Shown: positions 18,378 to 54,060, counted from the first letter of the whole stretch. The stretch: DNA of 55,310 nucleotides, filler included, from Jimgerdemannia flammicorona (GCA_003990765.1; 3 parts of 3 records of this genome joined end to end with filler, not necessarily neighbours in it), one strand, 5' to 3'. Program-made: numbers and translations. Notes: generated by a model from the letters alone, not told the origin.

Positions 18378-18477
18378 NNNNNNNNNNNNNNNNNNNNNNN
18401 NNNNNNNNNNNNNNNNNNNNNTTAATTAATTAANNNNNNNNNNNNNNNNNNNNNNNNNNNNNNNNNNNNNNNNNNNN
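18378..18477. other. Artificial contig linker (N-run, TTAATTAATTAA, N-run)
   Basis: Six-frame-stop spacer inside Ns; identical to 36845-36944. Confidence 0.97.
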
Positions 18478-22605: not shown

Positions 22606-22678
<73 letters not shown>

Positions 22679-23949
22679 GGACTCATGTCCTGCAGAATTT
22701 TATTGGAAGGGAACTTAGACTATATAGGCCAAAACCCTCCCTCACCACCCACCAAGCACTGCCCCCCCATTAACCTAGGCTAGCTATTATCCAGCAGCTC
22801 AATCATACTAGGCACAGCAGGGCCTATATTGGCCTATATCTCATTCTGCGAACTATGCTCTCTCTACTACCAGGGGAAACCCAACCATATGCCAACGACC
22901 GAAAGTATATATCTGAGAACCCAATGTATGTACAAGGCCATGCTCGAGCCGAATAGAATAGCTCCTACCACCTTAAAGAGAATGACAGGCAAAGAAAAAC
23001 CCTTATCAAAGTACAACATAGTGGGTAGGGCCTGGTTCTCCCAGTTAAAGTGAGTAAAGGACTTACATGTGAGGCAGGAGGAAGCCCCCAATATCTCACT
23101 ACTCAAGCCTGCAGGCCTTGATCACATTACCATATCAGCTCCTGGTTCCAGTTAAGTGCAGCCAAGATATCTGAAATAGATAGCCTTGGGCCCCCCAACC
23201 CCCCCTGACAACTAGGGCTCAACCTCGCTGACTACCAAAAGAAGCTGAGAGTGACACCTACCACCTAACTACACTGCATCAATCAAAAGGCCCCACCAAA
23301 ACAACACCTGCCCCAGCCCCAATGACTACCCCCAGCCTGGCACCCTACTGGTTCACCATTATTGCCCTTCCTCCTATTTGTGACAGCCATCTCCCCTCCC
23401 ATCCTGACAACACCTGAAAAGCAGTCACCTATGCCAGAACTGCACTCACTGGGAAGCTCACCAAAGCCAGAGGGCCCCACCACAGGTACCGAAGACCTGC
23501 AGGTAACCTATACTGAGCACTTGATGCCCAAGGTCAGTCGACTCCCTATATAGCCCAAGACACACCAAGACAATACTTTGTTGGTGATGGCAAAAGGAAG
23601 AAGGCACCACACCAAAATAAGTATACTCCATACACAGTTGAAGGCACCAGAATCTACAAAAAAGTGAAGGAAGTACTGATTGGACACCAATAAAGGGGCA
23701 ACTCATCACTATTGCCCTCCTCTCACTATGCCCCTGTAGGTACAGCAAATCAACCTAAGGTAGAGGAGGTAATATTAGGGGAAAGGAGACTCAGAAGGTT
23801 GCCTACCAAACCTTGTGACCAGTAAGGTAGTGGAGAAAGGAGCGTCTAGAGTTCTGTTTATACACTTAGTTTGTCCATTAGTTTGTAGATAAAAGATAGT
23901 AGATATAGCCAATTGAATTCTCAGAGTCTTGAAGAGAGTTTATCAGAAG
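19919..23949 (-). mobile_element. Heavily decayed chromoviral Gypsy element (family C): integrase core/GPF region, chromodomain (~21900-22020), probable 3' LTR (~19919-21535)
   Basis: Minus-strand EYKAEKILDK...KYLVK...DTIW chromodomain and integrase remnants (NRTLEQILRNYVSY, EFAYNN). LTR limits are tentative. Confidence 0.7.
22610..23844 (-). mobile_element. ~1.2-kb poly(A)-tailed non-LTR retroelement (SINE-like / non-autonomous), 15-bp TSD TCTAGAGTTCTGTTT
   Basis: Long poly(T) at ~22607-22675, AATAAAA near the 3' end, and TSD at 22595-22609 and 23845-23859. Homologous to 33843-35030. Confidence 0.85.
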
Positions 23950-25561: not shown

Positions 25562-28116
25562 TGTGATGTACACAATTGACAATAGAGTACTGGTGACTGC
25601 TAAGGTCAGACGACATAATAGCGTGACAATCAAATAGACAGCCTGACCCATTAGGTGATCATCCCAAAGAAGACAAGATAATCCGAGCCAAAATGAAGAC
25701 CACATTATTTAAGGAACCATACTCCACCTCAGGGATCGGCACCAAAGAACCAAGTACCCACCACACAATGTCTTCTATTCGCCGAACCAACCAGACCTCC
25801 CACCACTCTACCCCTCTGCCTGGCCCAAAGACCCTGATCTTTGAAGCTATCAAGAAGGCCATTTGGCGCCCAGATACTTCCAAACACTTGAACTTCTACA
25901 CCGAGGACCTTGGACACTTCATCAACTACCGGTATATAATGACTCAACAGCTCAAAGATACTACCAAACGAATGACCCTCTGGCATGACTACAAAATCAG
26001 ACACCGCCTTCGCAATGAGACTCAAGAAGATGACCAGGAAGGCCTCATTACCGAATTGATAACCACTAGCCAGCTAATCAAGAGAGCTCTCTGTGTCCAC
26101 CAAATCTTCCACCATACTCTCTGGGCCATAGCACACTTGCAAGGAGTAACGACTGGCAGTCTTTCCTGCCTTTCAACTGAAGATGCTGACTGGATAGAAT
26201 CTGAAGTAGCCAACTCTACTGGCAGCAACCGCATCGCTGTAGGAAGTCAACAAACCGAATCTACTCAACCAGGTTTCCACACTACCTCACTCCGAGACAA
26301 CCATCAAGGTCACCTAATGAGCCTTATGAAGATGTTTGAAGGACCGCTCATTACTATAGAAGCACCCGTTGGAGCTACCCCTACCACCCACCACCCTATC
26401 AGCTACAATTTACATCTCATCATTTGGGAACCGAATCAAGAAGAAGCCCAAGAGGTCCCTGTCTTTAAGGAGGAAGCCCAAGAACTCCAAGACCCTGCCC
26501 CTGAAGAAACCCTCTCTGACACTGAAACTGATGAGCCTTCAGAAGAAGAAGAGGAGCAACAGAGAGTCTACCAGTCCTCTGTCCACATTCAAGCTGTTCA
26601 AGGGTTGGAGAATGTTGTTGAAGATGACTGGCCACTTTTCTACCCCCTCACCTCTTGGCCGGTGCTTCCCCCTTTTGAGGAGAGGTATGATGAAGAAGAA
26701 ATCTTAACCCAGCAAGATTTGCCTGCCATGGATGAAGGGTACTATTTCCTCTAGAAGCACCACCTGTCAGCCATGAGAATTGTGCAGCCTTCATATCAGC
26801 AAGTCCGAATCCAGCATTGCTACTCAGCACAACCATTTCCAGCGTCGCTATCCAGTGCCACCATTTTCAGTATTTTGTCAGCAAGTCCGAATCTAGCATT
26901 ACCACCCACAACATCCATATCCAGCACTAGCACTCATCTTATTCCTATTCGGCGCAAACAATTATCACACCCGTTTTCAGCATTGCTATCCCCTACAACC
27001 TAATCCATAGTAAACAATAACCTGCACCTCACATCGTGCAAGCCAATAGCATAGCGAAGTTCGCTACAACGTAGTATACCTTAGCCACACCCATAGCTAG
27101 CAAACTTGTAAAAATAACCCATATTCTTAGAGTGAATAAAGCCTCAGCCAGTTTGTGTTTAAAGGTAAAAAGGATTACAAAGAAACCACTGCCTCCAAGA
27201 GACCGGATAAATTCTGAGAACAAGATAACTAGAGCAACGATCGCTCAAGGTTTGAGTTAAAGAATTTTCTCTTGCCACAGAAAGAAAACATTACCCAACC
27301 ACCGCCATTCGAGACCCAAGTTACTCAGCCAAGGATTCAAGACCACAGACTGCCCACAATTCAGCCAGTTTGTGTTTAAAAGTAAAAAGAATTACCAAGA
27401 AACCTCACTGCCTCCAAGAGACCAGATAAATTCTGAGAACAAGATAACTAGAGCAACGATCGCTCGAGGTTTGAGTTAAAGAATTTTCTCTTGCCACGGA
27501 AAGAAAGAAAATGTTACCCGACCGCCGCCATTCGAGACCCGAGACTCAGCCAAGGATTCAAGACCAGACCACTATTCAGACTGCACATTCAGACCGCCAT
27601 TTGAGATTCAAGACCCAGAAACCCAAGGATACCCAGCCAAAGGATACTAGACTGCCAAAGACCGATCCACTGCCAAAGACCCGAACGACTGCTAGGAACC
27701 TAACAAGTTAAGATGGACAAGCGAGCTGTCAACCTCCATTTTTCTGACCTACTGTGCCACGAACCACTTAAAGTCAAGACCATCGCCTGCTTTAATTGAC
27801 CACATAAAGAGCAAGCCCATCATCGCCGCATAAATCCAAAGTTTGCCACCAAGTTAATTGCTGCCAGGAAACTTAGCCAGCATAATCACCGCCCTTATCC
27901 ACTAAAATATTGAGCCACCATCATTGAACAACTGAACGACCTCCCCATTGAACAATTGATCTCCTGCTATTATTATTACTGCATGAAACGAACGACCTGT
28001 CATGTGACCATCGACCCATAACCATTGCGAATGCACTCAGTTTTCCATCGCGTGCTTCACCAGTGGCACACATTGAGCCGTGCAGTCGAAGTTCATTATA
28101 CATAACCAATACCACA
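25562..28116 (+). mobile_element. Solo LTR (2555 bp) with 4-bp TSD ATAT, containing an intact ORF and a ~215-bp tandem duplication (~27145-27560)
   Basis: TGTGATG...ACCACA termini with ATAT on both sides. The TATA/poly(A) region (27092-27150) is homologous to the TRIM LTR (15274-15330). No PBS, PPT or gag/pol. Confidence 0.85.
25693..26754 (+). CDS. LTR(U3)-encoded protein of unknown function, 353 aa; helical-looking N-terminal domain and acidic C-terminus
   Basis: Uninterrupted ORF, homologous by eye to ORFs 11131 and 41609 in other LTRs. Confidence 0.8.
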   Translation: MKTTLFKEPYSTSGIGTKEPSTHHTMSSIRRTNQTSHHSTPLPGPKTLIFEAIKKAIWRPDTSKHLNFYTEDLGHFINYRYIMTQQLKDTTKRMTLWHDYKIRHRLRNETQEDDQEGLITELITTSQLIKRALCVHQIFHHTLWAIAHLQGVTTGSLSCLSTEDADWIESEVANSTGSNRIAVGSQQTESTQPGFHTTSLRDNHQGHLMSLMKMFEGPLITIEAPVGATPTTHHPISYNLHLIIWEPNQEEAQEVPVFKEEAQELQDPAPEETLSDTETDEPSEEEEEQQRVYQSSVHIQAVQGLENVVEDDWPLFYPLTSWPVLPPFEERYDEEEILTQQDLPAMDEGYYFL

Positions 28117-29549
28117 ATATGTATATAAAATATCCAAGAGAGGAGGGGCTCTGAGAATAATTTCTGAGCTATACAAACTAGTTATATTGGTCTGATTATT
28201 CCCACAATGATAAGACAAATTCACTATACAGTATAGGACAATCAGTTTAGCCCTGAAAGAGCTTATATTGGATATTTGTATACATTGAAACTCAACATTT
28301 GCAATGATCTAGCAAATGCTGGAGTTTGCTGTAATATGCATCCTTTTTTCTTTGGTCAGTTGAAGCAACTTATTTCAGATGATTGAAGATTTTTTTTTTT
28401 AAAAAAAAAAAAAAACAAAAAAAGCCAATAGATTCAATAGTGGCTACTGATAAGAAAATATAGGGCAAGGTTCTAGGTAAAAGTGAGTGAGACATACTTA
28501 GGAATATTGTCCAGAGTTTTGAAAGTAGTAATTACTCTGGCTCCATACTTGTTTTGTCTATCTCTGCACAATACAATATCTCACCACATATAACTACCAG
28601 TATTTCAACAATTGTATGAAGAATATAGTCAAATAAATGACTCCAACAATAAGCTCTACAATACCAGTATATAATCTTCTGATTAACTGGCTAGAGGATA
28701 AGCTCAAGGATAGGCTGAAGGGTTGTAGTGATTTATAGTTAAGCCCAGATCAGTGAGATGTCATAGAGGTTGATCTAAGCAAACTTAGAAAATACTACTC
28801 CAAAACAGATACTGCCATATACTCAATCAGTATAAATATGTTAGCATGTAGCTATTACCTCTTCCAAAATAGAGAAATCTCTACAAAAACTCACTCTCTT
28901 TTCTCTGAACAGTACTGGACCCATACTTAAAGCTACAATACTATAAAGATCAGGACTGGGAGTAGTACTTCATTGAGAGAACTAAGTAGGCTATAATTGA
29001 AGTATACTGGAAAAACTATATACTACTATAAGATTCCAGCCAAAGTCTGGATGAATATGCTGAGAGATCCCTCCTGTTCTACATTTACTTCAGCAGAAAG
29101 AGGAAGAGAGAGCTATCAGTGAAAGAGCTGTCATCAATAGACAAACTTACCATTTATCTCACCAGTGACCATGTGATCCTGCTGGAGAATGTGGAGGTGC
29201 TCAACTGGTGGAAGATGAGTTGTCAGACAGATATTGAGCCAATTTAACCTATCAATCTAACTACTACCCTATCCATCAGAGTGTATAGCTGCATCAAACA
29301 AACTTCCCCAGCCTATATAGTATAGCTTGGAACTATCTAGCAATTCCTGCCTCCAGTGCTCCCATCAAGTAAGTGTTCTCAGGTAGGGTAGACCTTGTTA
29401 TCCCAAAGAGATGTGCACTGAATGCTGAGATAATCTAGGTGTATATGTATCTGAAGTCTTGGTGGGGCTCAGGCCACTAAAATTCAGTGGATCCTGGGAG
29501 TTTACAGATAAGTTAGTTGGCCTTGTGGAATATTTAATACCTTTCAAAA

Positions 29550-32520
29550 ATAAAAGGAAAAAAAACCTGAGGACTTAGCCTGAAGTTTGTGACCCAAGTA
29601 GAGCAGTAGTCAGTGGGGTTGGTGACAGTAGAGAGAGTATGCAAAATTTGTAACCCTTTATTAGCAGTAAAGAGCAGCCCCAAGCTGTTAGTACCTGGAT
29701 CAGTGGGCAGGTCGGTGGGTGTGGGGTCAGCAGAGAGAGTGTATAAAATTTGCAGCCCTCTGCCAGTAGTAAGCGATAGCTCTAAGCTACAAGTATCCAG
29801 ATTGGGGGGATTAGTGGAGGAGGGGGTAGATAGAGGGAGTGTACAAAATTTGTGGCCCTCTGCTAGCAGCAAGGGGCAGCCCCATGCTGTCAGTACTCAG
29901 ATCAGTGGGCAGGGTTAGTTAGTGGAGTCAGTGGGCACAGGGTCAGTGGAGGGAGTATGAAAAATTTGCAGTCCTCTACTAGTAGTAAGGGGTAGCCCCA
30001 AACTGCAAATATCTGAGACAGATAGGGCAGACAGAGGGAGTATGCAAAATTTGTGACACTAGCAGCTTGGGGCTCCTTCCAGCAGCCTGTGTCTAGGCTA
30101 GGGGTTGGCAGGATTGGCAGAGGGAGTATACAAAATTTGTAGCTCTCTGCCAGCAGTATAGGGGCAGCCCCAAGCCACTAAGGAGTCTGAGTCTGGGCAG
30201 AGAGTACTTCTGATAGTTGGAGGGTACTTCTGGCAGTTGGAGAGTGCTTCTGACAGTCAGAGGGTATTTTCAGCAGTTAAAGAGTGCTTCTGACAGTCAA
30301 AGTCCACTACAGATTCAGGCCCTATCACTAGTTCAGATCTCATGGACACCCTGGCCCTGCACTGTAGTGCCACACTAGTAGAACTACAGAGCAGGGCCAA
30401 GGGACCAGTAGGGCCCAGCATAATGGCTAAACTAGTGCTACAGAAGAGGTACCTGGCTGCTAGCCCAACTTGTACAAAATGACTGCTAAACTCTCATGAA
30501 AGATTGTCTAACCCTTATAAAAAATTGTCTAACCCTTATGAAAGATTGCCTAACTCTCATGAAAGATTGCCTAACTCTCACAAAAACTACTCTACCTACC
30601 GATCCCAGGCCTTGATGAGTCTGTTATCTATTGTAAGTATGATGATTATTGTGTCTAAGCTCTCCTCAAAGACAATAGTACTATAGTGATTGTGTGGTTA
30701 GAATAGGACAGCTGTATTGGCTGCAAACAGAACCCCAAAACTATAGATGAGAGCATACCAGACTCTGCTACTATCCTCTCTGGTTGGGTCCTTCCTTTCT
30801 AGGATGTAGAATATTACTGAGGTAATGTTGTTATCTATATGTATGGACAGAGAAACATTGCACCTGACATATCCTGATATAATATAAGTATATGATTGGG
30901 TGAACTCTTAGTCCAAGACCTTGTACTGCCAGGCTGTGCTGGTGGATGCCTGCCCTTGGTCTAGCCCCAGAAGCCCTGACTTGGAAACCTGTCAGACAGA
31001 TGGCATCTAGTTAGTCCTTTTGTATGCAAGGGGGGCAGAAGCCCCCTAGGCTACAGAAAACCCCCAGGCTGCAGCACTCAAAAAAAGTGGAGCTCCTCAC
31101 CTTATATGGCATACTAAATTGCACCAAGAATATATATACAGCTGTGCTGAGATCACCACTAAGCTGGTCTGCCATATGCTCTACTAATCTGCTCAAAGAA
31201 CCCCAGATTATAGTCACCATCACTGTACAGGCTGTATCATGCTCATATGCAGTTTGCTCTTTGATGGCACTTCTAAAGTTCCAGTAGGGGTACAGAATCT
31301 TATGCATTTCTGGAATTGTATCAAAAAGAGTATGTCAGTGAAGAGTATGATTATTTGGGAAGGAGTAAAAAAAAGAGAGATGAGTACAGAAGATTTCAGA
31401 TCTCTAGAACCCACCTTTTGCCAGTATTGCAGTATACTCAATTTCTGTCCAAACCACCCCTCCTTGCTTTTTTCACCCCCTCTTTTCTGCTATCTAGTAT
31501 TTGATACAATCTTTACAAATCTTATTAATATGGCAGTGAAGCTCATTGCCATAGAGATTTCTTACCACTATTACAACCACCTCTCCACATTTGTTAATAA
31601 TGATATGATTCTCTTTATCATTGATTACTCCTGCTGGCCAATAGATCTCTTGGTTGAGAACAATTAGCTCTGATTCAAATGTAGACCCCCAAGCCTTGAT
31701 GATGATACTGGTACTGCTCATGCTGAACATCTTACTCTTGAATTTCTCTATTTGATCAGATACCAGATGTAATTGAACTTGGATAACTTTGAACTCTCCT
31801 TTTCAATGGAACTGAGCTCTGATCTGAGTGGCCAAGATAAGTATATAGACAGGTTGCATGTAGATGGGTTGTATGCAGATAGGTTGCATGTGGGCAGATT
31901 GTATATAAATGGGTTGCATATAGGTGTAGGTGTTTTTTAGAGAGAGACCATGTAAAAAATGAAGTTAAATAAAATATAGAGATGGGTATTTCAGAAAAAG
32001 AGTATAAGTGAGTGAGTGAGTGAGTTGTATGCTGACAAGTTGTACAAGTTGCATGAGTTATACAAGATTGCTTATAAAGGCTTACTTTTGTTCCTTTTGA
32101 GACCTCTGCCATATGATATATTGACTCAACAGCTCAGCCACCAAAGGCATGCCCTGTAATATCCACCAGCCTTTCTTCATCTTGATCAGATGTTGTGAAT
32201 AAAGTCAGCAGATCTCACTATAGAGCTATGGACCCTAAGAAAAGCATGAGGTAAATTGGGTCATATTAGAGAAATTTAAATAAATATAAGTAAATAAGTG
32301 GCAGCAGAGTGAGCAATCTACATCTACTATTTACTGCTCCAAAAAGGCTACCATATATATAGCTATGAGGTCTGTAAATTCTGAGATCTGAAGGGCCACT
32401 ATGAGTTGTTGCCAGAATTCTCTCTCATCTCTGCCATTGTCACTGCCATCACCATTGCCACTATCATCACCACTGCCATTACTCCTTAGGCTTTTGATGA
32501 GTAGCTTGTATGCTGTCTAT
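29550..32520 (-). pseudogene. Putative TET/JBP-like 2OG-Fe(II) dioxygenase gene carried in the hAT element (core exon 30988-30600; repeat-rich C-terminal region)
   Basis: The exon after branch ACTAAC and acceptor CTGACAG translates ...NVSLSIHIDNNITSVIFYILERK...WYALIYSFGVLFAANTAVLF*PHNHYST...IILTIDNRLIKAW. It has HxD and a distal HGT-like motif (TAT AGT ACT can derive from CAT GGT ACT by transitions). Outer limits are approximate. Confidence 0.6.
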
Positions 32521-32997
32521 ATGAGAAAGAATCTAATATTATTAGTAGAGAGTGTATTTCTATCTTGAATACTCTCTCTTTTGATGATTATTGCAGGGTA
32601 AAAAATGAGTAGACTAGATCAACATATAATTAAGGACTACTGTTTTATTTACTCATGATGTAGTAGGAAAGAAAAAAGAATAAAGAAAAAAAACAAAAAA
32701 AGAAAGAGACAAAAGAAAGAGTGATATCACCAAAGTGTAGTAGGAAAAAAAAACAAGAGTGAAAATGAACAAAAGAAAGGATAATATTATCAAAGATTTC
32801 AATCTGGATAGATTAATCCAGATAAATCAATCCAAATAGATCAATCAGATGGACCAATCTGGATAGATCAATCTGGATCAATCTGGATGGATCAATCTGG
32901 ATCAGATTACAAGACCAATCCAAGTTGATTTGAATCCATCACATGACAAATCTGAATCAAATCTCATCTGAATCAACTCCATCCATTTGGAGCACTA

Positions 32998-35555
32998 GCA
33001 ATATGATTGAGATCTATAGGCTTGAGTAGTGGGATATTGAAAGTCTTCTCTTATCTTATATATAAGTTCTTTACTCATCTCATTAAAAAGAACTAGGTCC
33101 TATCCACCATTCTATATTTTGAGGAGGATTTTTCTTTACCTATTGCTCTCCTTGGGACAGTGAGGACTATAAATTGACTTATATATAGCCTTATATATAT
33201 GTTGAGAATTCAGATATATACCTTTAGTATATATTTATTACTCTCTGATAGTAAGAAAAGCATAGTGTGCAGAATGAGGTATAAGCAACTTTGTCCTACT
33301 ATACTTGATATAGTTGAGCTACTGGACAATAGTTAGTCTGGGTTTAATGAGGGTATAGTACTCAGTAAGTGATGGGGGAGAGTTTTGACCTATATATTCT
33401 AGGTTCTCTTCCAATAAAATCTATGGAACTTTGGATCTATTAAATATATATATAAGACTATACTAAAGCTAGCTAGCAAAGTCTCTACTATTCCAAATAA
33501 AACAACAGATAAAGAAAATCTCTCCAAAGATATAGAATAGTGAATAGAATCTAGTTCTCTCTGATAAAGTAAGTGAAGAACTTATATGTAGAGCAGGAGA
33601 TATCCCACTACTCAAGTTTGCAGGTCTTAATTATATCACTATATCAGCTCTTAGTTCTTGTTGAGTATAGTCTAAACATCTAATCTGAGTAGTCTTGGGT
33701 TCTTTAATAACTCTAAATAACTAGAGTCCAATCTTATATATATATTATCAAAAGCTACAGAGAGTGATATCTATTATCTAACTACTCTATATTAATTAAA
33801 AGACACTATTAATATAGTGCTCACATCAATTTTGATAATTATGGCCCCTTTCTCCACTACCTTACCAGTTACAATGGTTTGGTAGGCAATCTTCCAAGTC
33901 CACTTTCTACAATTATTACTCTCTTTACCTTGGGTTGGTTTGCTGTACCTAGTACAGGGCAGTGGGAGGGAGGCAATAGTGATGAGTTGCCCCTTTATTG
34001 GTGTCCAATCAGTGTCTTCTCCACTTTTTCACAGTTTCTGGTACCTTCAGCTACATCTGGAGTATATCTATTTTGGTGCAGTGCCTTCTTTCTTTTGTCA
34101 TCACCAACAAGAAACTGTCTTGGTATATCTTAGGCTACATAGGGAGTTTGCTGACCTTGGGCATCAAGTGCTCAGTATAAGTTATCTATAGGTCCTCAGT
34201 GTCTGTGATAGAGCCCTCTAGCTTTGGCGAGCTTCTCAGCAAGCATGGTTCTGGTATAGGTGACTGCTTTTCAGATGTTGTCAGGATGGGAGAGAAGATG
34301 GCTGTCACAGATAGGAGGAAGGGTAATAATGGTGAACCAGTAGAGTGCCAGGCTGGGGACAGTCATCAGGACTAGAGCAGGTGCTACTTCAGTGGAGCCT
34401 TTTGATTGATGTGGTATGGTTAGGTGGTAGGTATCACTCTTGGCTTCTTTTGATAATTTGGTGGATTGGGCCCTAGTTGTCAGAAAGGGTCAGAGGGGCC
34501 CAAGGCTACCCATTTTAGGTATCTTGGCTACACTTAACTAGAACCAGGAGCTGATATAGCAATGTGATTGAGGCCTATAGGCTTGAGTAGTAGGGTATTG
34601 GGGGTCTCCTCCTACCTCATGTGTAAGTCCTTTACTCATCTTGACTGGAAGAACCAGGCCCTACCCACTATTGTGCTTTGATGAGGGTTTTTCTTTGTCT
34701 GTTATTCTCTTTGGGGTGGCAGAGGCTATTCTATTTGGCTCGGACATAGTCTTGTACATATATTGGGTTCTTGGGCATGCACTTTCGGTCATTAGTATAT
34801 GGCTGGGTTTTCTCTGGTAGTAGAGAGAGTATGATATACAGAATGAGGTGTGGGCTACCATAGGTTCTGCTGTATCTGGTATGGTTGAGTTACTAGACAA
34901 TAGCTAGCCTAGGTTAATGGGAGGACAGTGCTTGGTGGGTGGTAGAGGAGGGTTTTGGCCTATATAGTCTAGGTTCCCTTTCAATAAAAATCTGTAGGAC
35001 ATTGAGTCCATTAAAAAAAAAAAAAAAAAAATCAATTTTGATGATTATTACTAGTCTAGCATCTGACTGATTTACTATAATCACTCTTTCACCTATCTAT
35101 AATAGCTATCTTCTCTCTCATTCCAATACTACTTTAAAAGTAGTTATCTATACTAGAACTATAATTACTAAAAAGCTTACCAAAACTTAAAGAGCCTACT
35201 ATAGATACTAAGAACCTACTGAAACCTTCACTGACACTTGATGTCCAAGGTTAGTTAACTCTTTACATAGTCTAAGATATATATATTAAGATAATATCTT
35301 ATTGATAATAATAAAAAGAAGAAAGTATTATATCAAATAAATATATCTCAAATATTATTAGAAGTATTGAAAAAGTAGAGAAAGTATTAATTTGATATCA
35401 ATAAAAAAATAACTCATTACTATTATCTCCCTTCTACTGCCCTATAACTGGTACAGACCAACCTAAGATAGAGAGAGTGAAAGTTAGGAAAAGAGAACTC
35501 AGAAGGTTGTTTATCAAAATCTTATAACTAGTATGATAGCAGAGAAAGAAGAGCC
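32998..35555. mobile_element. Cluster of three copies of the ~1.2-kb poly(A) retroelement; complete copy at 33843-35030 (+) with 18-bp TSD nested in an older minus-strand copy
   Basis: TSD ATCAATTTTGATAATTAT (33825-33842) / ATCAATTTTGATGATTAT (35031-35048) and poly(A) at 35013-35030. The flanks are decayed homologs of the same element. Confidence 0.82.
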
Positions 35556-36025
35556 CTCAGTTACTTTGTTAAAAAGTAATAAAATATTCAATAGTTTCTC
35601 TCAGAAATAGATACAAGTTCTTTATTTTATATAATATAGATGATTTTAGTAATTTTCTAGATAGTGTAGAATTTTTTTTTAAATAGTGAGTAATATAGAT
35701 TCTTCTGAATTAGCAGATAAGATATAATATAATTCTCTTCTGACCTATTTGGCAAGTGAATTAAAAATGTAGCAGACTTCTTTATATCAAAAAGTAGACT
35801 AGAGTGTAAATTATACATCAGACTTATAATTTTTTAAAAGTAACTTTAAAGCAGGCATTTCTTCTAAGTATTATAATCCTTTCTAAATCAAATAGCTCTT
35901 GGCAGATATATCTCTCAAAGTATAGTAGTCAGACTTGTCTTTTGCTTTTTGGTTTCAATTTCAGACTGAGGTTTATTTACTTTTATCTCTGGGGTATTTT
36001 ATATATATAGTTGTAATTGCTATCT

Positions 36026-36026
<1 letters not shown>

Positions 36027-36099
<73 letters not shown>

Positions 36100-36620
36100 T
36101 TACTTAGACTTTGTCATTTATTACTAATCTATCACATAAATTACATTATTCCCTCCTATTACCCAATACCTCTGGGGAGTCTCCCCTCTATACTCTTATA
36201 CTTGAAAACTATCTTACCACTCACCACTCCAACTTTCCCCTTACTCTATCTACAGATTTTCTCTACCAAATAGTACTACTGATCTCTCTGCAGACCCCAT
36301 CTCAGCCACCAATCTATCAAGATGTCCTCTATCAACCCTTCCCATCTTGCCAACTACTCTCTCAAGCTTAAATGCTTACTCTCTTCAAAAAAAAATAGTC
36401 AGTAACCTGTCAGTCCCATTCATATCACTAATATCTAACCCAAAGTTAGCTACTCCTTCTCTACTCTCCCCACCAATTTATTCCTCAGATCCTCCCATCA
36501 ACCCTACTCACCATCCCCCCTATACACAGTATCCAATCTATTCTTGACTACTAACCAGAATTCACCAAGTATTTTGCACTCTTCCAGCCAATATTCTGGT
36601 ATCTTAGTTACTATTTGATT
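36027..36620 (-). mobile_element. 5'-truncated LINE 3' end with poly(A) tail
   Basis: Poly(T) at 36027-36097. Minus-strand PEYWLEECKILGEFW resembles the end of the ORF2 CCHC (zf-RVT) motif. The coding strand is G-rich, like the LINE at 498-2414. Confidence 0.55.
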
Positions 36621-36844
36621 ACTATATAGCAAACTATAGATTGCTATTTTTGATAATATTTAGCTATTTCTATTAGAAATATAAATCTCAAATTCTGGTA
36701 TAATATATTAACTAGAAATACTAATCTCAAATTCTAATATAGTATACTAGCTAGAAATACTTTGTATCCTTATTTGGCTATCTGGGTTATTTATATAAGT
36801 TGATACAATAGAGCAGTTCTAGTTATTTTTTTTTTTTTTTTTTT

Positions 36845-36944
36845 NNNNNNNNNNNNNNNNNNNNNNNNNNNNNNNNNNNNNNNNNNNNTTAATTAATTAA
36901 NNNNNNNNNNNNNNNNNNNNNNNNNNNNNNNNNNNNNNNNNNNN
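36845..36944. other. Artificial contig linker (N-run, TTAATTAATTAA, N-run)
   Basis: Same spacer as 18378-18477. Confidence 0.97.
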
Positions 36945-39900
36945 AACAACCTGACCACCAGAACACTAGACTTTGTCAAGTTAAGACAAACTGCTAAGGC
37001 CCCAACCAAAGGAAGTCAAAAAGCAGCTGGATATGACCTGTATGCAGCCGAAGAAGCTACAGTTTCTAACCAAGAAGTCAAACAAGTCTATACAGGAATC
37101 AGTATCCAAATCCCTAAAGGACATATTGGAAGAATATGCTGTTGCAGCAGCCTAGCACTGAAAGGACTCTCAGTAGAAGGAGGAGTCATTGACGAAGATT
37201 ATACAGGCGAAATCATTGTCCTATCCGAAACCACAGTTGGACACTCTTCAAGATCCCTATTGGCTTCTGCATTGCCCAGATCTTGTTTGAAAAAATCGAG
37301 TCAACCCTGACAGTCAAGGAAGTCCCTGAACTACTACCTACCATCCGAGGATCCAAAGGATTTGGCTCATCAAACAAGGCCCCAGCCCAACCTACTGTAA
37401 GCAAAGAAAAACAATTCTACAAGAAGATAGAAGATGGATATGTACCAAGTGGCTGATGCCCTCATGGTATTGGAATGTACTCTTCCCGAATGATTGATGA
37501 TTGCTTCTCTTGTGTCAACGAATTGGCTCAAAGAAGAACCAACAGAAGAAAGGCTCCTACAACCAAAATCACCACAATTGGATCAGACAAACTGCTCACC
37601 CTTAAAGCTTTTGTCAATGGAGCACCTGTCAAGATTATGATAGACAGTGGTGCCTCAGGCAACTTCATCAATGAAGAGATAGCAAACAGACTCAAGGTCT
37701 TCACCTCCCCAGTACAGCAAACTCAAGCAGTTGCTACAGCTGATGGAACCTCGCATGTTATTAGCAAAGAAGTCCGCAATCTACCCTTCCGAATTGGCGA
37801 CTACCGAGTATATGTTACCCTCCAAATCGTACCACTTCCTGACAATGAAATCATCCTTGGGACTCCATGGTTAAAATAAGAGAACTCCATGATTGATTGG
37901 GTAAACTATTCCCTGACTATCAAGAAAGGATGCCACAACTTCAAACTACAAGGCGAAAAGGACCCACTCAACTCTAGGGACCCTGGACCAAAGATCACTC
38001 ATATCAATAAGCTACAACTCAAGAAATTGGCCAAGAAATGCCCTCTCTTCGCCATCTCCATCCGACCATCCAAAGGAGAACCTGAGAACTCTGAAGAAGA
38101 TTTTTCTAAAGTTGACAGCCATGTCAGACCACTACTCCAGAAATTCCGAGACATATTCCCAAAGAAGCTCCCGAAAGGCCTACCTCCCAAATGAGCAGTA
38201 GATCATGCCATCAAGACTATCCCAGATACCAAACCAGCCTTCAAGTCAATCTACCACATGTCTCCAAGAGAAATTGATGCACTCAAGAAGGAAATCGACG
38301 AACTCCTAGAACAAGGATTCATCAGACCCAGCATATCACCCTATGGTGCACCAGTCCTCTTTGTTGTCAAGAAAGGAGGAGACCTGTGAATGTGTATTGA
38401 CTACCGCGATCTCAATGAACAGACTATCAAGAACTGTTGCCCACTACTGAGGATCAATGAAATATTCGATAGACTTACCAACCCACAATTCATGAGCTCT
38501 TTTGACCTGTAAAATGGTTACTGGCAAATTGCCATGAAAGAAGAAGACATCTACAAGACAGCTTTCTGAACTCGCTATGGACACTTCGAGTTCCTGGTTA
38601 TGCCCTTTGGCTTAACTAATGCTCCAGCAACCTTTCAGACACTGATGAATACCATTCTGCATCCATACCTGGACAAATTCATTGTTGTCTACATTGACGA
38701 CATCCTAGTCTTCAGCAAAATGCTGGAGGAACATCTTGAACACCTTGAACTAGTACTACTGAAACTCCGAGAAAACAGACTCTTTGCAAAACTCAGCAAG
38801 TGCAAATTGCTCCTGAAAGAAATTCAATTCCTTGGACATATTATCACTCCAAATGGAATCAAAGTGGACCTCAGCAAAATCTCTGCAATCAAAGATTGGC
38901 CCAGACCAAGGAAGCTGAAAGACCTCCAGTCATTCCTGGGATTAGCAAACTATTACAGGCATTTCGTTGCCAACTTTGCTAAAATTGCTACTGTCCTCAC
39001 CCAAATGACCAAGTACAGCAAGAAACAAGAACAACCCTGGACCATGAAACAAGAGAAGGACTTCAACAATCTTATAAATTGGGGACCCAAACAAGATACC
39101 ACCTTTCAAGCACTGAAAGATGCCCTGATAACCACTCCAGTACTTCAAGCAGCAAACCCTGCCCTACCATATGAAGTCACCACTGATGCCTCTGATCTAG
39201 CTCTTGGAGCAGTGCTCATGCAAGAAGGACACCCTGTGGCCTATCACTCCCGCAAGTTCAATGATACCGAAATCAACTACACAACTCACAAAAAGGAAAT
39301 GCTAGCCATCGTAGACACTCTGATTAAATGGTGACCATATCTAGAAGGAGCACACTTCACTGTATTGACCGACCACAAGTCATTAGTCAACATCAAGACA
39401 CAGGCCACCCTTTCTCAAAAGCAAGCTAGATGGATGAAAGTCCTCACCAACTTTGACTACGAAATTCAGTACCACCCTGGCAAGGAAAATATTATTGCCA
39501 ATGCAATCTCCAGACCACCAATTGAAGAGGTTATCCAAACCCTGACTCTGGTTACTAATACTATCATGGAACAAATCATTGCAGCATGTGTTGATGATAA
39601 AGAAGCTCAAGCACTCCGAGAAATCCTGAACAATGATGATGCTGACAAGCATACCTGGTACAATCAATACCAACTCAAGGATAATGCTATCTACTACAAG
39701 GACAGATTGTATGTCCCAAACAACCGAGATCTCCGAAGGACTATCCTATTCGAATGTCATGATGCCCCTACAGCTGGACATTTAGGATTTGATAAATGTT
39801 ACGAAGTTATCTCCTGAAACTTCTATTGGCCCCATATGGCAGATCAGCTCAAAACCTACATCACTTCCTGTGATGCCTGCCAAAGAAACAAGTCCTCAAT

Positions 39901-41032
39901 ACTAGCAAAACCCGGCTTACTCCACCCTATTCCAGTACCATCTGCAAATTGGGAACAAATCTCTATGGACTTCATTGTACAACTACCCCGAACCAAGAAT
40001 GGAAAAGATGTAATTGTTGTCTTTGTGGACTATCTCAGCAAACAAGCCCACTTTGTGCCTACTACCACTACTGCAACAGCACCAGACATAGCCACACTCT
40101 TGTTTGACAACATCTTCCACTATCATAGTCTTCCCAAGATCATTATTAGTGACCGAGATCCGAAATTCACCAGCCACTTTTGGAAAGCCCTCCATGCACA
40201 CCTTGGAATGAAACTTGCACTATCCACAGCCTTTCACCCTGAAACTGATGGCCAAACTGAAAGAATGAACCGAACTCTGGAACAAATGCTAAGGAACTAT
40301 GTTTCCTATAGACAAGATGATTGGCATGAACACCTCACCGCAGTTGAGTTTGCCTACAACAACAGCAAGCAAGCCTCTCTTGGAATGACCCCATTCTTCG
40401 CCAACACTGGACAAAACCCAAACACCTCTTTGACACTTATCTGAACCACCGAAGAACCCTCCACAGTCAAAGCTGTTGAAGAATTCCTACTCCGAATACA
40501 TAATCTAAGCCAGATTGCAATTGAGAATTTATCACAAGCTCAAGAACAACAGTCACAGTATGTTAACCAACACTGCCGAGAAGAAACCTTTGACATTGGA
40601 GAAAAAGTTCTACTAGACATCAGAGGATACCGAGTTGATAACCTCAAGCACAGACTATCCACAAAGCTGAACAGCAAGTTCATTGGACCATTTGAAGTCA
40701 TTGCACAAGTCTCTCCAACCTCCTACAAACTGGCACTACCGGACACCATTAAGATTCACCCAGTCTTTAATGTTCAACGTCTCAAGCGATATAATGACAA
40801 TAATGATGAGCTATTTCCAAATCGGACCACCAAACCACCTGCACCTGTCATCATAAATGACCAAGAAGAATATGAAGTTGAACAAATCCTCAACAAATGT
40901 GGCAACAAGAACCATCCTGAGTACCTTGTCAAATGGAAAGGTTACCCGATCCATGATGCAACCTGGGAACCTAAGACCAATCTTCAGAATGCTACCGACC
41001 TAGTTTAGGAATATGATTCCTTGAACAACTAG
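36945..41032 (+). pseudogene. Gypsy family B (chromovirus) pol: dUTPase (36965-37372), CPH-x12-CxxC module, protease, RT, RNase H, integrase, chromodomain (40867-41020)
   Basis: [70 protein letters not shown] and EYEVEQIL...YLVKWKGY...TWEP. About ten premature stops, mostly TGA. Confidence 0.95.
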
Positions 41033-41457
41033 AACCAAATACTCTGCACCTATCCATACATACTATATATTACCCTCCTGAACATTATAACTATCACAAA
41101 CCAAATCAAGAACTCAGCAAAACAAGACAAGAATACCGACCCTCTGGAAAAATAGCAAAACTGAAAGCAAGCCTATTCTCCCTGTACCACTGGTGGGAAA
41201 CAAGGTGTAGACATTTAAGAAGATTCCTTAGAGGAAATTCTCCAGCAGTAAATGACATCAGAATCACTTCTGGCGCATGGCATTGAACACACGACCCTTT
41301 AACATGTGAATCCAACGCGTTAGGCAACTGTACTATGAGCATGCCACTTTCTGAGAAAATGGACCTTACCAGACTTTTGACCTCCCAAACAGTGTAACAA
41401 TACTAGAATAAATTAGAAGGCTCTGATGAGGACATCGAAAGCTAAGAAGGAGAGAGT

Positions 41458-43497
41458 TGTAAGTGCACAACCTCCAAGCCACTGAAATCACATATGACCT
41501 CCGAACAAATCTGGAAATCACCTGCTTGACTACAAAGCTGAGTCAAACCGAAGTCACAGTGCACAAAGCTGAGTCAATACGAAGTCACAGAACACAAGAT
41601 TTATACAAATGGAACCTTACCAATCAGGACCAAATGCATATATACTGAGCACCGAGACACGTCGAACCAGAGAACCAAAACAAACAACAACCACAACTTC
41701 CAAACACACAAACATGACCACTGAGATCTACAACTGCATCCGCGCTGACATTTGGAATGCCATTGTCAACCGAGCCACACCCCCTCTGCCCCTCATGAAT
41801 ATCCATAGCCTGGCACCCCTCTACTTCGTGGAAGCCCGATGGAACACCCTGAACATGCTTAGCGAGGCCCACCGAATCGGACAAATCTCAAGCTACTACC
41901 AGATCGGCTGCCTCCTGGAAGACATGGTCAAACACTACCATGATACAGACAGTACCCAGATGTCTCAACACCAGAAGCTCATCGCCCGCAAACATCGAGA
42001 ACTCTTCTATGAGTACAATACCTTTATTCCCTGCCTCCGAGTCACTACCAGTGAAATGATTGCTACTCTGTCCTATGGCCAAATCGATGACATGATACAA
42101 GAACTCAACCACAAGTACCTCAAATATGTCCAGACCACAGACAGAACCTTCCCGCACCCTGATGACCACATCCTGCAAATGCCTCAAGTCGGATACGCCA
42201 TGAAGGATGTCTATGATATAATCCACTTCGATGAAGATGAAGCAGAAGACAATGATCCCTCTGATGCCGACATGACCTCTAGCCAAGGATCTCTGCCAAC
42301 CCTGATCACTCCACCAACCTTGCCGATGAACTTACAACAGTTCATAACTACATACGAGACTTATTGGGACAATGACCACTGGTATGAATACCAACCCGCG
42401 TTCACCCCCAACTACTTCAACTATAATGAAGAGACCAGAGAACACAACCTGTACCTCCAAACAACCCTAGAGATCGAACCAACAACCCCACCACCTGAGT
42501 ACGAGCGACTCGAACCACAGCCGCCAGCTTACTACAACCCCGTGACTCATAGTCCTGTAACTTATAGAAGGTACGCAGACAGCGAATCCGATGAAAGCGA
42601 AGACAATATACCCATCCTTTGCCCACCAACACCTTATCCAGTATATGAAACAGACGATGCTATCCTGTGGGATGGAGATGAAGTCCCAATATATTACTAC
42701 CTCAGCCAACAAGGAGAAGTTATCCGCGAACCACTCTTCCTAGATGACTACTTCATCAGAGACGATGCAATCGATGGTGATGTCATTGAAGACTACCCAG
42801 ATAGTGCCTAAACCTATAATTAGTCTAGTAGTTATAGTATAGATAGATTAGCCTTATACGACGTGACTGTGAACTGACTCAGCAGTCAGATGATCTCTTG
42901 ACATGTCAGCTCACACTTGTACTATGTGACTGCATTTGACTCAGCAAGGCACTTAGTGCTATACCCATATCTAGCATAGTCCAGATAGGCCCTTACTAGT
43001 ATAAATACCCCCTCTCCCAGACCTCAGAATCTGACACTCGAACAGACTTGAACAATCCAAACACAACTCCTGAGCACTTCCCCACAATACCCCTTCACAC
43101 AAATATTCCTAGTATAGCAATATCATGAATAGCAAATAAACCTATTCCATAACCCACAAACCACTCTTAAGTAAATCTGCTCCCTGTTAGGTCCTACTCC
43201 TAACCCCATCACAAAATTTCCTAATTGGGTATTGTCTGCAGTGATATGCCAATTCAACTAAGCTGGTCTTAGTTTCTTGAACTTCCTGAAATATGGAAAA
43301 TCCTGAACATTCAGAACTAGTCCGAAAAAGGACTTTGGTTGAGACATCAACCGATCTTGAAATCAATAAGCGTAGAGAACATACTCCATATGAAATTGAT
43401 CTTGACCATAAGAAAATGGTCTTCCAGAACATCCAGAATATCCAGAAAACCTTTCCAGAACTATGTAATGGTTGCCCTAAAAAGTAACCCTCTTACA
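41458..43497 (+). repeat. 3' LTR of Gypsy family B (2040 bp), TGTAAG...CTTACA, containing a 400-aa ORF
   Basis: PPT AAGAAGGAGAGAG immediately upstream, 6-bp inverted termini, TATAAATA at ~43000, and a second copy at 52038-54060. Confidence 0.92.
41609..42811 (+). CDS. LTR(U3)-encoded protein of unknown function, 400 aa; conserved N-terminal domain and acidic Pro/Tyr-rich C-terminus
   Basis: Uninterrupted ORF within the LTR. IYNCIRADIW / YYQIGCLL / ARKHRELF...IPCLRVTT align with ORFs 11131 and 25693. Confidence 0.82.
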   Translation: MEPYQSGPNAYILSTETRRTREPKQTTTTTSKHTNMTTEIYNCIRADIWNAIVNRATPPLPLMNIHSLAPLYFVEARWNTLNMLSEAHRIGQISSYYQIGCLLEDMVKHYHDTDSTQMSQHQKLIARKHRELFYEYNTFIPCLRVTTSEMIATLSYGQIDDMIQELNHKYLKYVQTTDRTFPHPDDHILQMPQVGYAMKDVYDIIHFDEDEAEDNDPSDADMTSSQGSLPTLITPPTLPMNLQQFITTYETYWDNDHWYEYQPAFTPNYFNYNEETREHNLYLQTTLEIEPTTPPPEYERLEPQPPAYYNPVTHSPVTYRRYADSESDESEDNIPILCPPTPYPVYETDDAILWDGDEVPIYYYLSQQGEVIREPLFLDDYFIRDDAIDGDVIEDYPDSA

Positions 43498-43943
43498 CAA
43501 ACACAAACAAAACAAATCCAAATCGAGATTAAAAAACATCCGCAGACCCCAGAGGGGTGAGTACGAGTGAGAGGTGAGACCTTACTCTGCTCCCCTCCGC
43601 TGCCTTCGGCCCCTCGCTTCACTTGGGCTCACTGCAGCTTGCTCCATTTCAGCCTCACCCCTCGCTCGTGCTCACCCCTCTGGGGTCTGCGGATGTTTTT
43701 TAATCTCGATTTAGATTTGTTTTGTTTGTGTTTGTTTGTGATTTTTATCCTGCAACTGGGATTGGCTCCCCCTTTATCTCCACCTATCTCCGGTGGTCAT
43801 GTGGTTCCTAATTCGGTTTGCCCTGAGTTGTGGCATGTCCTCCCTTTTGGGATGTCATATTTTATATATAAGGACCGCGTTTTTACATGGCAATAAATAG
43901 CTGATGCATTTTCAGTTACATTCTTTGTTCGTCCCCCTTATAC

Positions 43944-45170
43944 ATGCCTTTCCACATGTCTTCTGTTCGCTTTGACACTGGCTCTGGGTTCACTCCCTTG
44001 GCTCCCACTGGGCCTTCTTCCTCCTCTGCTGTACCACCTGCCATTGGGGCCTCCGTCCTCATCAATGAGCTCATGGATGAGGAACTTCCTCCTCCCCCTC
44101 CCCCTGCCTTCACTCCTGCTACTGTCTCCTTTGAGACCTACGTCTCTTCTGCCATCCTTTCCCTCCCCTTAGACCTTTGTCCTTCTGGTTGTCCGCTCCT
44201 CTCTCAGTTTCGGTCAGTTCTTGCCCTCTCTGCCAAGGAGGCTCATCTCTGCCATGATGTCGACATCATCGCTCTGCCCACCATCTGCTACTCTGTTCTC
44301 CCTGAGGCCCGCCACCAAGCCCTCTCCGAAGAGGTTTGCGCTACCACTGCCGCCGCCAAGCTTGCCACTGCTGATGCTGCCGCTGCTTCTGCTGCCACTG
44401 CTTCCGCCTCCTTCCAACGTGCCTGTGCCACTTTCGTGGCCTTCGCCTCCTCCCGCCTTTCGGATACTGCCCCCTTCTGTGGCTTTGCCATCCAAGACAT
44501 TCCTTCTGTCACTGCCAATATCGACGCTGTGCATCATTTCCTCCTCACCGGCACCTCTTTTGTTGCTCGCCTTCATGAGCAGGAGTCATCACGTGCTACC
44601 ACTGCTGCTCATGCCGCCGCCCCTGCTCCCCTGCCTACCTCCCCTGAGGTTTCAGTCTCCAAGACCATCTACGCCAAAGCTCGTGCCGCTACTTGTGCTG
44701 AGGTTCGTTCCTTCACCACTGCTGCTGCCAAGGCCCTCTCCAAGACCCCCGCCAAGACCCCTGCCAAGCCCAACCAGACTTCATCGGCCTCTTCCCGGTC
44801 TCCCTCCCCCACCAAGGCTTCCTCCTCTATTCCCCCTACCCCCAAGCATGGCCACCAACTTGGTTCTTGCCCTGTCGGGGCTTGGCCTTACGCTGTCTGC
44901 TCTGGTCACCTCCACCATGCCTACTGGCACCCAGCCAAGTCCATCTGTCCTCATGGTGGTGTTCCTCGCGCTGCTGCCCCTTTGACTGCTTGCTCGCCTT
45001 TGGCCTCTACCAGTTCTTCCTCCGCCTCCTCCACCTGTGCCCCTGAATGTAAGGGCTGCACGAAAGCCTGTGGCCACAAGGTCTGGCACTCTGACAGAGT
45101 GTGCTCCCATTCATTGGGCTCGCTACCTTCAAAAAAAGTCAGAGGGAAGGGGAAGGCCTCCCGCTCTTAA
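43944..45170 (+). CDS. PLE ORF1 (Ala/Ser/Pro-rich, two C/H-rich WH motifs, basic C-terminus)
   Basis: 408-aa open frame starting inside the pLTR, upstream of the RT in the same frame. Confidence 0.7.
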   Translation: MPFHMSSVRFDTGSGFTPLAPTGPSSSSAVPPAIGASVLINELMDEELPPPPPPAFTPATVSFETYVSSAILSLPLDLCPSGCPLLSQFRSVLALSAKEAHLCHDVDIIALPTICYSVLPEARHQALSEEVCATTAAAKLATADAAAASAATASASFQRACATFVAFASSRLSDTAPFCGFAIQDIPSVTANIDAVHHFLLTGTSFVARLHEQESSRATTAAHAAAPAPLPTSPEVSVSKTIYAKARAATCAEVRSFTTAAAKALSKTPAKTPAKPNQTSSASSRSPSPTKASSSIPPTPKHGHQLGSCPVGAWPYAVCSGHLHHAYWHPAKSICPHGGVPRAAAPLTACSPLASTSSSSASSTCAPECKGCTKACGHKVWHSDRVCSHSLGSLPSKKVRGKGKASRS

Positions 45171-47063: not shown

Positions 47064-47672
47064 CGCCCTCTGATTGCTCGTTCGCATCTTTCTTCCATTT
47101 CTTCTTCAATCCATCACTCTCATTTTGCATTTTCGTCACCTTCTGGTGCCTCCGGTTCTGCCAGAGAGGATTAAAAAACATCCTTGCCCCCTCCGGGGTC
47201 TCGTGCTCACTCCGGGGTCTCGGCCTTACTCTGCTCCCCTCTGCTGCCTTTGGCCCCTCACTTCACTCGGGCTCACTGTGGCTCGCTCCATTTCGGCCTC
47301 ACCCCTCGCTCATGCTCACCCCTCTGAGGTCTGCAGATGTTTTTTAATCTCGATTTGGATTTGTTTTGTTTGTGTTTGTTTGTGATTTTTATCCTGCAAC
47401 TGGGATTGGCTCCCCCTTTATCTCCGCCTATCTCTGGCAGTCATGTGGTTCCTAATTCGGTTTGCCCCAAGTTGTGGCACATCCTCCCTTTTGAGATGTC
47501 ATATTTTGTATATAAGGACCACGTTTTTACATGGCAATAAATGGCTGATGCATTTTCAGTTATGTTCTTTGTTCATCCCCCTTATACACACCTTTCCACA
47601 TATCTTCTGTTCGCTTTGACACTGGCTCTGGGTTTGCTCCCTTGGCTCCTGCTGGGCCTTCTTCCTCCTCTG

Positions 47673-48030
47673 ATCTTGGTGTCATTTGAAAGCTCTTAAT
47701 AAGGCCTATCTAATGATATCAAGAACATTGAAATCAGATTATGCATTGCTGAGTTATGAAGGAAAACATCTGAATCGCCGATTTTGGAAATTTTGTCAAA
47801 TAGAACATTTTCCTTAATATCTCAGCAATGCATAATCTGATTTCAATGTATTTGGTATCATTAGAAAGGCCTTATTAAGGGCTTTCAAATGACACCAAGA
47901 TTATCAAATTTGGATGATTATTAATCGAGTTATTGATGTAAACATTTAATTGTCTAATTTTGGAAATCAAAATAATGGTTGATTCGAATCCCATCCGAAT
48001 CCCATCTGGATTGACTCATTCAGAGCACTA
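47673..48030. mobile_element. hAT/MITE terminal fragment with an internal ~227-bp palindrome (47674-47900) and TIR GAGCACTA
   Basis: TCTTGGTGTCATTTGAAAG...CTTTCAAATGACACCAAGA inverted arms. The end, TAGTGCTCTGAATGAGTCAAT on the minus strand, resembles 23950. Confidence 0.7.
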
Positions 48031-54000: not shown

Positions 54001-54060
54001 ACTTCTAGAAAACCCTTTTAGAACTATGTAATGGTTACTCTAATAAGTAATCCTCTTATA
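48031..54060 (+). mobile_element. Second, more decayed copy of Gypsy family B with a ~0.5-kb RT deletion (~49630) and 3' LTR at 52038-54060 carrying the pseudogenised U3 ORF (~52160-53370)
   Basis: Colinear with 36945-43497. Differences are dominated by C>T/G>A, and the LTR end is decayed to CTTATA. Confidence 0.93.

Follow-up and report, generated by a model that had tools for sequence, protein, structure and literature searches.

In mouse mammary tumour virus (MMTV), the open reading frame (ORF) of the superantigen gene sag lies in U3, the unique 3′ region of the long terminal repeat (LTR), and the foamy-virus tas/bel genes, which have an internal promoter, and nef of the human and simian immunodeficiency viruses (HIV/SIV) are 3′ accessory genes that overlap U3. 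The LTRs of the Cassandra terminal-repeat retrotransposons in miniature (TRIMs) harbor a 5S RNA gene that is transcribed independently, and the brtn gene of the retrotransposon Boty runs antisense to gag-pol. The accessible parts of the literature describe further genes in Ty3/Gypsy elements, including brtn in Boty/BcGypsy1 of Botrytis (bioRxiv 10.1101/2021.04.13.439636), an “add. ORF” of unknown function drawn for fungal Gypsy elements and an env-like ORF in Athila (PMC2864245), and captured extra ORFs in rotifer Gypsy-type elements (PMC5408684), and they record dUTPase-bearing chromoviruses from fungi (PMC2864245). Here we describe a stretch of 55,310 nucleotides of DNA, filler included, from Jimgerdemannia flammicorona (GCA_003990765.1), hereafter the window, in which three families of Ty3/Gypsy or LTR-like repeats (A, B, and C) each hold a related ORF. 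The best overall explanation, which we favor with modest confidence, is a small gene family built into the LTRs (1.6–2.6 kb) of dUTPase-bearing Ty3/Gypsy retrotransposons.

The ORFs to which an earlier note on this DNA had drawn attention are present at 25693–26754 (353 aa, family B) and 41609–42811 (400 aa, family C), with a decayed one near 11131–11592 (family A). Two 100-nt blocks at 18378–18477 and 36845–36944 each consist of 44 N, TTAATTAATTAA, and 44 N; we take these artificial-looking blocks to be linkers and read the window as three contigs placed end to end. In all three joined pieces, decayed Ty3/Gypsy elements are nested in one another.

Like sag, the window ORF is in the sense direction and probably lies wholly in the U3 of an unusually long LTR, and both LTRs would hence hold it. 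However, Sag is a membrane glycoprotein, whereas the window protein is without a hydrophobic segment and has no sequence or fold similarity to it, and the host here is not a retrovirus but a Ty3/Gypsy retrotransposon with dUTPase and chromodomain. The likeness to tas/bel and nef lies in the 3′-terminal position of an accessory gene, a proposed separate promoter, and a transactivator-like acidic C-terminal region, but those genes begin in the internal region and overlap U3, while here the whole ORF is placed past the polypurine tract, and there is no homology. Cassandra offers a separate transcription unit that sits in the LTR and is duplicated along with it, although its gene is non-coding, transcribed by RNA polymerase III, and found in plants, whereas the one described here is protein-coding. 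The additional ORFs of other Gypsy elements are likewise extra genes beyond gag and pol, but they are internal and some are antisense or have Env features; the window ORF is in the sense direction, has no transmembrane segment, and falls between the polypurine tract and the TATA box of the LTR. Unlike brtn of Boty, it is on the gag-pol strand (in A and in both C copies). Within the accessible portions of the literature, including PMC6431247, PMC12581995, and PMC10787394, no sense protein gene is described within the LTR of any LTR retrotransposon, fungal or otherwise, outside the retroviruses; most subscription journals are outside this coverage. The earlier note knew of no fungal Ty3/Gypsy equivalent, and this accessible literature, which contains no sense ORF in a fungal Gypsy LTR, agrees with it. 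Pfam, the PDB, and fold libraries returned no match to a described family.

The same note held that the three proteins share an N-terminal domain. This holds at the level of direct sequence comparison for families A and B, which are homologous by BLASTP (P0001 of B against P0003 of A, E 2e-11, 30% identity over 144 aa), while the family C protein P0002 shows no BLASTP similarity to either of them (best E 0.19 and 1.1) and is linked at the profile level only. Alignment of C to the family with hhalign gave P values of 0.039 with four sequences, 0.0011 with seven, and 0.0058 profile to profile, collinear and in the same register every time. Residues 1–200 of P0002 scored 15.7 bits in hmmsearch with profile A3, where the highest of 2000 shuffles reached 8.0. 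P0025, an intact relative of the C-type N-domain, scored 22.4 bits with A3 and 15.6 with A7, where no score in 5000 shuffles exceeded 9.0, equivalent to single-comparison E values of 4e-9 and 4e-7, respectively. On the opposing side, P0002 reached only 6.9 bits with the broader profile A7, under the best of 5000 shuffles (10.5). Because element position and architecture are held in common, the odds of membership are raised, and by these comparisons C is likely a distant member of the family.

The family is small. Out of 1,835,955,588 representative proteins, a profile search with the N-domain retrieved seven that passed E ≤ 0.001, and E was ≤ 1e-10 for five of these; word-based searches added a few further fragments. 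The relatives P0012/P0018, P0013/P0019, P0014, and P0017/P0020 are 23–30% identical to P0001 and have open frames of 149–342 aa; the P0012, P0013, P0014, and P0017 lineages all have the N-domain invariant residues and the tail motifs. A middle motif (W-x-P-x-L-x-D-N/T-P-D ... F-E/Q-G-P) occurs in most lineages, and the end of the acidic tail often carries a P-L/M/W-V/I-L-N-F motif. Pfam returned no family at E ≤ 1 for the seven members scanned, and a profile search of PDB sequences gave no match at E ≤ 10. Two scans of metagenome contigs were made, one of which was empty while the second yielded a single 1535-nt locus, L001, with an ORF at 376–1251. Viral contigs searched with profiles A7, A5, and A6 or with the family C reverse transcriptase (RT)/RNase H gave nothing, prokaryote genome contigs, searched as a contamination check, gave no matches, and a piece of pol placed in the ESM Atlas met generic RT clusters only. 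The plant ATHILA ORF1/Transposase_32 families (PF03078, PF20167) were considered and rejected as relatives: their ESM Atlas values of 0.89–0.90 for P0001, with 133–137 shared features, are at chance level by the figures of the tool itself, and hmmscan found neither at E ≤ 1. The public contigs that hold family members are mostly 0.6–2.4 kb long, near the size of an LTR or of the predicted mRNA (the P0012 contig is 1625 nt, the A LTR 1615 nt), and two longer ones, which encode P0014 and P0009, measure 4848 and 19434 nt, respectively. The short contigs fit LTR repeats collapsed in assembly, or transcripts. Within L001, a 33-nt motif that begins GTCAGGCGGAAC occurs both before the ORF (170–202) and after it (1481–1513).

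Evidence that the ORF is a selected gene comes from the two family C copies. Copy 2 (48052–54079) is ~80% identical to copy 1 (36945–43516) and its ORF region is full of stops. C-to-T/G-to-A differences between copy 2 and copy 1 number 622 against 118 in the reverse direction, at per-site rates of 0.60 in CpG, 0.44 in CpA, 0.29 in CpC, and 0.12 in CpT, and the GC content is ~32% in copy 2 and ~43% in copy 1. Judged by this substitution pattern, the decay of copy 2 is repeat-directed C-to-T hypermutation, with a signature like that of repeat-induced point mutation (RIP) or of a methylation-driven process. With hypermutation-type changes set aside, the remaining changes in the C ORF fall on codon positions 1/2/3 as 19/9/34 (p 5e-4), compared with 17/8/46 in pol and 12/10/8 (p 0.67) in the non-coding remainder of the LTR read in a mock frame. 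In the ORF, 30 changes are synonymous and 32 non-synonymous, where 18% synonymous would be expected, and the resulting omega-like ratio is 0.24, against 0.15 for pol; this count is crude, being unpolarised and weighting mutation classes equally, with its signal mostly in the tail half. In this crude form, the dN/dS comparison for which the earlier note had called gives a value that is not near 1, and the pattern indicates that the frame is under purifying selection over the time in which the two C lineages diverged. Since relatives at 23–30% identity retain open frames and motifs, and since the substitutions show codon-position bias, these comparisons identify the ORF as a real, conserved protein gene on the sense strand.

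In family C, a pol region at 36945–41005 (plus strand) encodes dUTPase, protease, RT, RNase H, integrase, SH3, and chromodomain in the expected order, interrupted by in-frame stops and frameshifts. The Pfam scan, which took as input 148 stop-to-stop ORFs of at least 70 aa from the window, matched these domains at E 1e-6 to 1e-27 in a single reading direction, and a polypurine tract and a TG...CA LTR follow, by all of which family C is a Ty3/Gypsy chromovirus with a dUTPase. Because the presumed linker block ends at 36944, copy 1 would begin at a contig end (36945) and not at a biological breakpoint, and its 5′ LTR is missing from the window. Its polypurine tract, AAGAAGGAGAGAG (41444–41456), is the longest purine run between the end of pol and the element end, lies one base before the LTR start, and recurs as an identical 13-mer at 52024–52036 in the hypermutated copy 2. 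The 3′ LTR (41458–43497, 2040 nt) begins with a TG adjacent to this tract and has TGTAAG...CTTACA termini that form a 6-nt terminal inverted repeat; homology between copies 1 and 2 stops at most 19 nt from 43497, and the flanks beyond the LTR ends are non-homologous. Within the LTR, 151 nt after its TG, the intact ATG ORF of P0002 occupies 41609–42811 (400 aa), and the relative P0025 begins at the methionine of P0002 codon 36 (41714). Two tandem 31-nt repeats, each with a TGAGTCA, precede the ORF (41532–41593), as does a looser TATA-like string at 41601–41607, read by eye. Following it at 42875–43140 is the putative main promoter and poly(A) region, with TGACTCA at 42875 and 42937, TATAAAT at 43000, and AATAAA at 43135; the last two are preserved in copy 2 at 53561 and 53696. 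The copy 2 LTR spans 52038–54060 on the plus strand, and its decayed ORF region at ~52162–53345 bears out the report of a fourth, decayed copy near 52160, which belongs to this second C element. Weaker Pfam matches to a family C pol occur at 47983–51571.

Family A is represented by two elements placed head to head, at 2508–7582 on the minus strand and 7601–12456 on the plus strand, with pol regions that are 87–88% identical; the junction 7582/7601 cuts both the 5′ LTR of the minus copy and the 5′ part of the plus copy. Plus-strand Pfam matches at 7781–10221 are to dUTPase, RT, and the integrase zinc domain. The polypurine tract, the purine run AGGAGAAAGA at 10832–10841, precedes a 3′ LTR of 1615 nt (10842–12456) whose end was set by homology to the 5′ LTR of the minus copy. 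It starts with TATAATG where the family B unit has TGTGATG, that is, with two G-to-A changes in the direction of hypermutation, and the accessible part of a study of another fungus describes a similar effect on the TpG of LTR starts (PMC10787394). Guided by the intact relative P0012, the decayed ORF can be traced at 11146–11916; P0012 (247 aa) aligns over its full length to 11146–11913 at 69% identity, with ATA at its start methionine and stops at its glutamine positions. Upstream of the ORF are TATAAAA at 10996 and TATAAAT at 11073, and downstream, at 11925–12250, are five 35-nt tandem repeats (11925–12099), TATATAA at 12215, and AATAAA at 12244. The minus-strand element retains a truncated 5′ LTR (6931–7582) that is 75% identical to 11747–12456, and its upstream 158 nt (7582 to 7425) code for the C-terminal tail of the ORF, ending in SDDEDEVSMVLNFLL and a stop; the ORF at 7428–7637 on this strand scored 9.2 bits against profile A7, rank 3 of the 148 window ORFs. 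A primer-binding site, TGGTGCCCATTGG (6915–6927, minus strand), lies 3 nt after the end of this LTR and is followed on the same strand by dUTPase (4101–4862, Pfam), RT/RNase H, and integrase. Because the tail and stop adjoin the remainder of an LTR, a primer-binding site, and gag-pol, this 5′ LTR too appears to have carried the gene. The earlier statement that the host elements carry a dUTPase is correct for families A and C by Pfam. Its companion claim, that one host family has a chromodomain and another lacks it, stands in its first half, the domain being present in family C; for family A, in which Pfam detected none among the ORFs of at least 70 aa of a decayed copy, a lack is not established.

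Family B is an LTR-like unit of 2555 nt (25562–28116, plus strand; tentative boundaries) that reads TGTGATG...CCACA with ATAT on each flank. Its intact ATG ORF, P0001 (25693–26754, 353 aa), is 75–77% identical to P0004 and P0011, and relatives of this ORF begin at the methionine of 25768. A looser TATA-like string was read by eye at 25706–25713, and an enhancer-like tandem duplication of ~220 nt lies 3′ of the ORF at 27144–27566. Within the contig, neither side of the unit carries a plus-strand pol, and no primer-binding site follows it. The window has neither a second copy nor an empty site, the empty-site search having returned self matches and one 24-nt chance match. To judge from these features, family B is probably a solo LTR that retains an intact frame of 353 codons. 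A string resembling the L001 motif, AAGGTCAGACGAC, occurs 41 nt into the unit (window ~25600–25617), and may be a common upstream control element.

We consider it likely, on the anatomy of these elements, that the gene is inside the LTR. The tract precedes the ORF in both A (10832–10841, ORF from 11146) and C (41444–41456, ORF from 41609), neither family has a purine run of 9 or more after the ORF stop, and the ORF is on the pol strand in A and in both C copies. The strongest line for this placement is the minus-strand A element. Several observations weigh against it. No LTR pair in the window spans an ORF, so the earlier claim of long, ORF-holding LTRs has indirect signs behind it: the tracts in A and C, the minus-strand A copy, and the termini of C and B. 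The minus-strand A LTR, cut at 7582, holds only the last ~52 codons, and a tandem upstream element would look alike. The boundaries of B depend on features 4 nt long in AT-rich DNA. The stop codon of L001 is directly followed by a purine run and TTGTAAT, which is what would be expected if in that lineage the LTR began after the ORF. The C copy 1 pol is dead, and the intactness of the ORF beside it may be luck (~0.2 by a rough estimate). The TATA box that the earlier note placed downstream of each ORF has a strict match in A and C and none in B. The lack of a covering LTR pair and the purine run after the stop in L001 give weight to an ordinary third gene between pol and a shorter true 3′ LTR of about 550–1350 nt, a reading that would also suit the LTRs of 339–443 bp in the accessible description of one fungal Gypsy family (PMC10787394) and the “add. 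ORF” of the internal region in the Figure 3 legend of PMC2864245. We nevertheless regard it as unlikely, given the clear purine run before the ORF and the lack of one past the stop in A and C, the LTR homology of the minus-strand A element, which runs 170 nt beyond the ORF stop into the coding tail upstream of the primer-binding site, and the absence of pol upstream of B. That the frames arose by chance in long LTRs and represent no gene would accord with the lack of a Pfam family or known fold, but the BLASTP match between A and B, the open frames in divergent relatives, and the codon-position bias leave this a negligible probability, refuted for practical purposes.

If the gene is inside the LTR, its position relative to U3 and R, the region repeated at both ends of the genomic RNA, can be judged from the promoter signals. 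Because enhancer-like repeats, TATA, and AATAAA follow the ORF in canonical order in A and C, the sequence would place the ORF in U3. A different arrangement, in which a TATA box at the 5′ edge is the sole promoter and the ORF lies in R as the first cistron of the genomic RNA, draws on the strict TATA 73–80 nt 5′ of the conserved methionine in A and L001 (TATAAAA at 296 in L001) and on the missing strict downstream TATA in B. We hold it to be quite unlikely, as the canonical order of signals 3′ of the ORF in A and C is kept between the two C copies, and we know of no precedent for an R of more than 1 kb that is read through before gag. Strict upstream TATA boxes occur in only two of the four lineages, where we estimate a chance expectation of ~0.26 per 300 nt, which also tells against a dedicated promoter for the ORF. 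The gene could, alternatively, be a passenger, a host gene or fragment captured by an ancestral LTR that has no role in the life cycle or now serves the host. The accessible part of PMC5408684 describes the capture of foreign ORFs by LTR retrotransposons, and the frame of the isolated B copy is intact. This reading is very improbable: all four of four DNA contexts are repeat-like and none resembles a host locus, the gene is kept with its frame under selection in three or more LTR families, with RT/RNase H regions in pol that are only 31–39% identical, and there is no cellular homologue among 1.84 billion representatives. For its distribution among these families, co-divergence with pol is a simpler reading than the exchange across lineages that the earlier note had entertained.

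The protein products share a two-part composition. AlphaFold2, run on a 13-row alignment, predicts a helical domain at about residues 41–190 of P0001, with a predicted local distance difference test score (pLDDT) of ~56–89 per 10-residue block and values below 50 for the rest. No fold match was obtained with Foldseek against the PDB (best E 0.29), with VIA-align against 48161 chains (best Z 4.6), or with the viral fold library BFVD (best E 0.046, template modeling score at most 0.2); kinship of the helical domain to Gag or capsid was considered, and no capsid chain is among the 50 VIA-align matches listed. In all eight members analyzed the N-terminal part is near neutral (isoelectric point 6.1–7.9), and the tail is acidic (isoelectric point 4.1–4.3), with a net charge of −14 to −40, 19–24% Asp+Glu, 22–35% bulky hydrophobic residues, and 9–16% proline. 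The acidic tails described earlier are therefore confirmed by net charge, as is the view that these are not Env proteins, since the maximum 19-residue Kyte–Doolittle mean is 0.46–1.09 in eight of eight members, with no transmembrane segment. Moreover, the ORF follows the polypurine tract in A and C, unlike an Env-like third ORF, which lies between pol and the tract. By eye, no canonical SUMO-interaction, Atg8-interaction, or HExxH pattern fits the conserved motifs. Because the charge of the N-domain is near neutral, we consider it more likely to bind protein than nucleic acid. The tail resembles an acidic activation or recruitment module in its makeup, although composition alone is no proof of activity.

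From this composition we propose, as a rather doubtful assignment, that the protein is an element-encoded adaptor or transactivator, in which the folded helical N-domain (~150 aa), the short middle motif, and the disordered acidic tail studded with hydrophobic residues would together serve as the adaptor, acting in trans on the LTR promoter of its own family or on host chromatin factors. The absence of any sign of DNA binding in the near-neutral N-domain speaks against this role, and the protein may instead antagonize chromatin or silencing or take part in particle assembly. We hypothesize a two-promoter LTR. A weak TATA-type promoter in the first 150–300 nt would drive a short mRNA for the ORF that ends at the poly(A) signal of the same LTR, with a predicted size of ~1.2–1.5 kb from any LTR, and the downstream promoter would drive the genomic RNA. 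A gene located in U3 is for that reason present in both LTRs; it would be copied into both at each transposition and would persist on solo LTRs. Each LTR, solo LTRs included, might then be a self-contained coding unit whose acidic factor works in trans, either on the main LTR promoter or on host silencing, a proposal that is itself unlikely to hold in full and that, if true, would amount to a positive-feedback or anti-silencing switch outlasting the loss of the internal genes.

If this reading holds, these elements would supply the first case, outside the retroviruses, of a protein gene that is native to an LTR, and an independent parallel to the U3 genes of complex retroviruses. LTRs are treated as non-coding control regions and masked by annotation, and genes within them would be systematically overlooked. 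A gene that every new insertion duplicates and that solo LTRs retain could be present in many expressed copies in one genome, and were the factor to regulate the transcription or silencing of LTRs, it would provide a handle on how elements escape or tune host control.

The remainder of the window holds several further features. Directly after the family C LTR, a 4.1-kb unit (43580–47672) is flanked by 449-nt direct repeats that are 92% identical; it has a GC content of 54%, a strong T-over-A skew, and two long ORFs (408 and 526 aa) overlapped by ORFs in further frames, for none of which Pfam gave a match at E ≤ 1. The GC-rich (55%), C-skewed segment at 1–2468 has tandem repeats of 12, 25, and 33 nt at 80–362 and a 638-aa minus-strand ORF accompanied by ORFs in several further frames, without a Pfam match. 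Minus-strand integrase and chromodomain remnants (21874–22608 and 23844–23936) lie just left of the B unit, and farther out the two arms of a 1.2-kb inverted repeat (22657–23843 against 33844–35031, 82% identical) lie to either side of the B region. A minus-strand fragment at 54872–55153 matches DUF7869 (PF25273) at E 7.8e-6, with a score at the gathering threshold. Finally, a palindromic element of ~230 nt with long inverted arms, similar to a miniature inverted-repeat transposable element (MITE), occupies 47676–47905, and a related copy lies in the first contig near 13488–13771.

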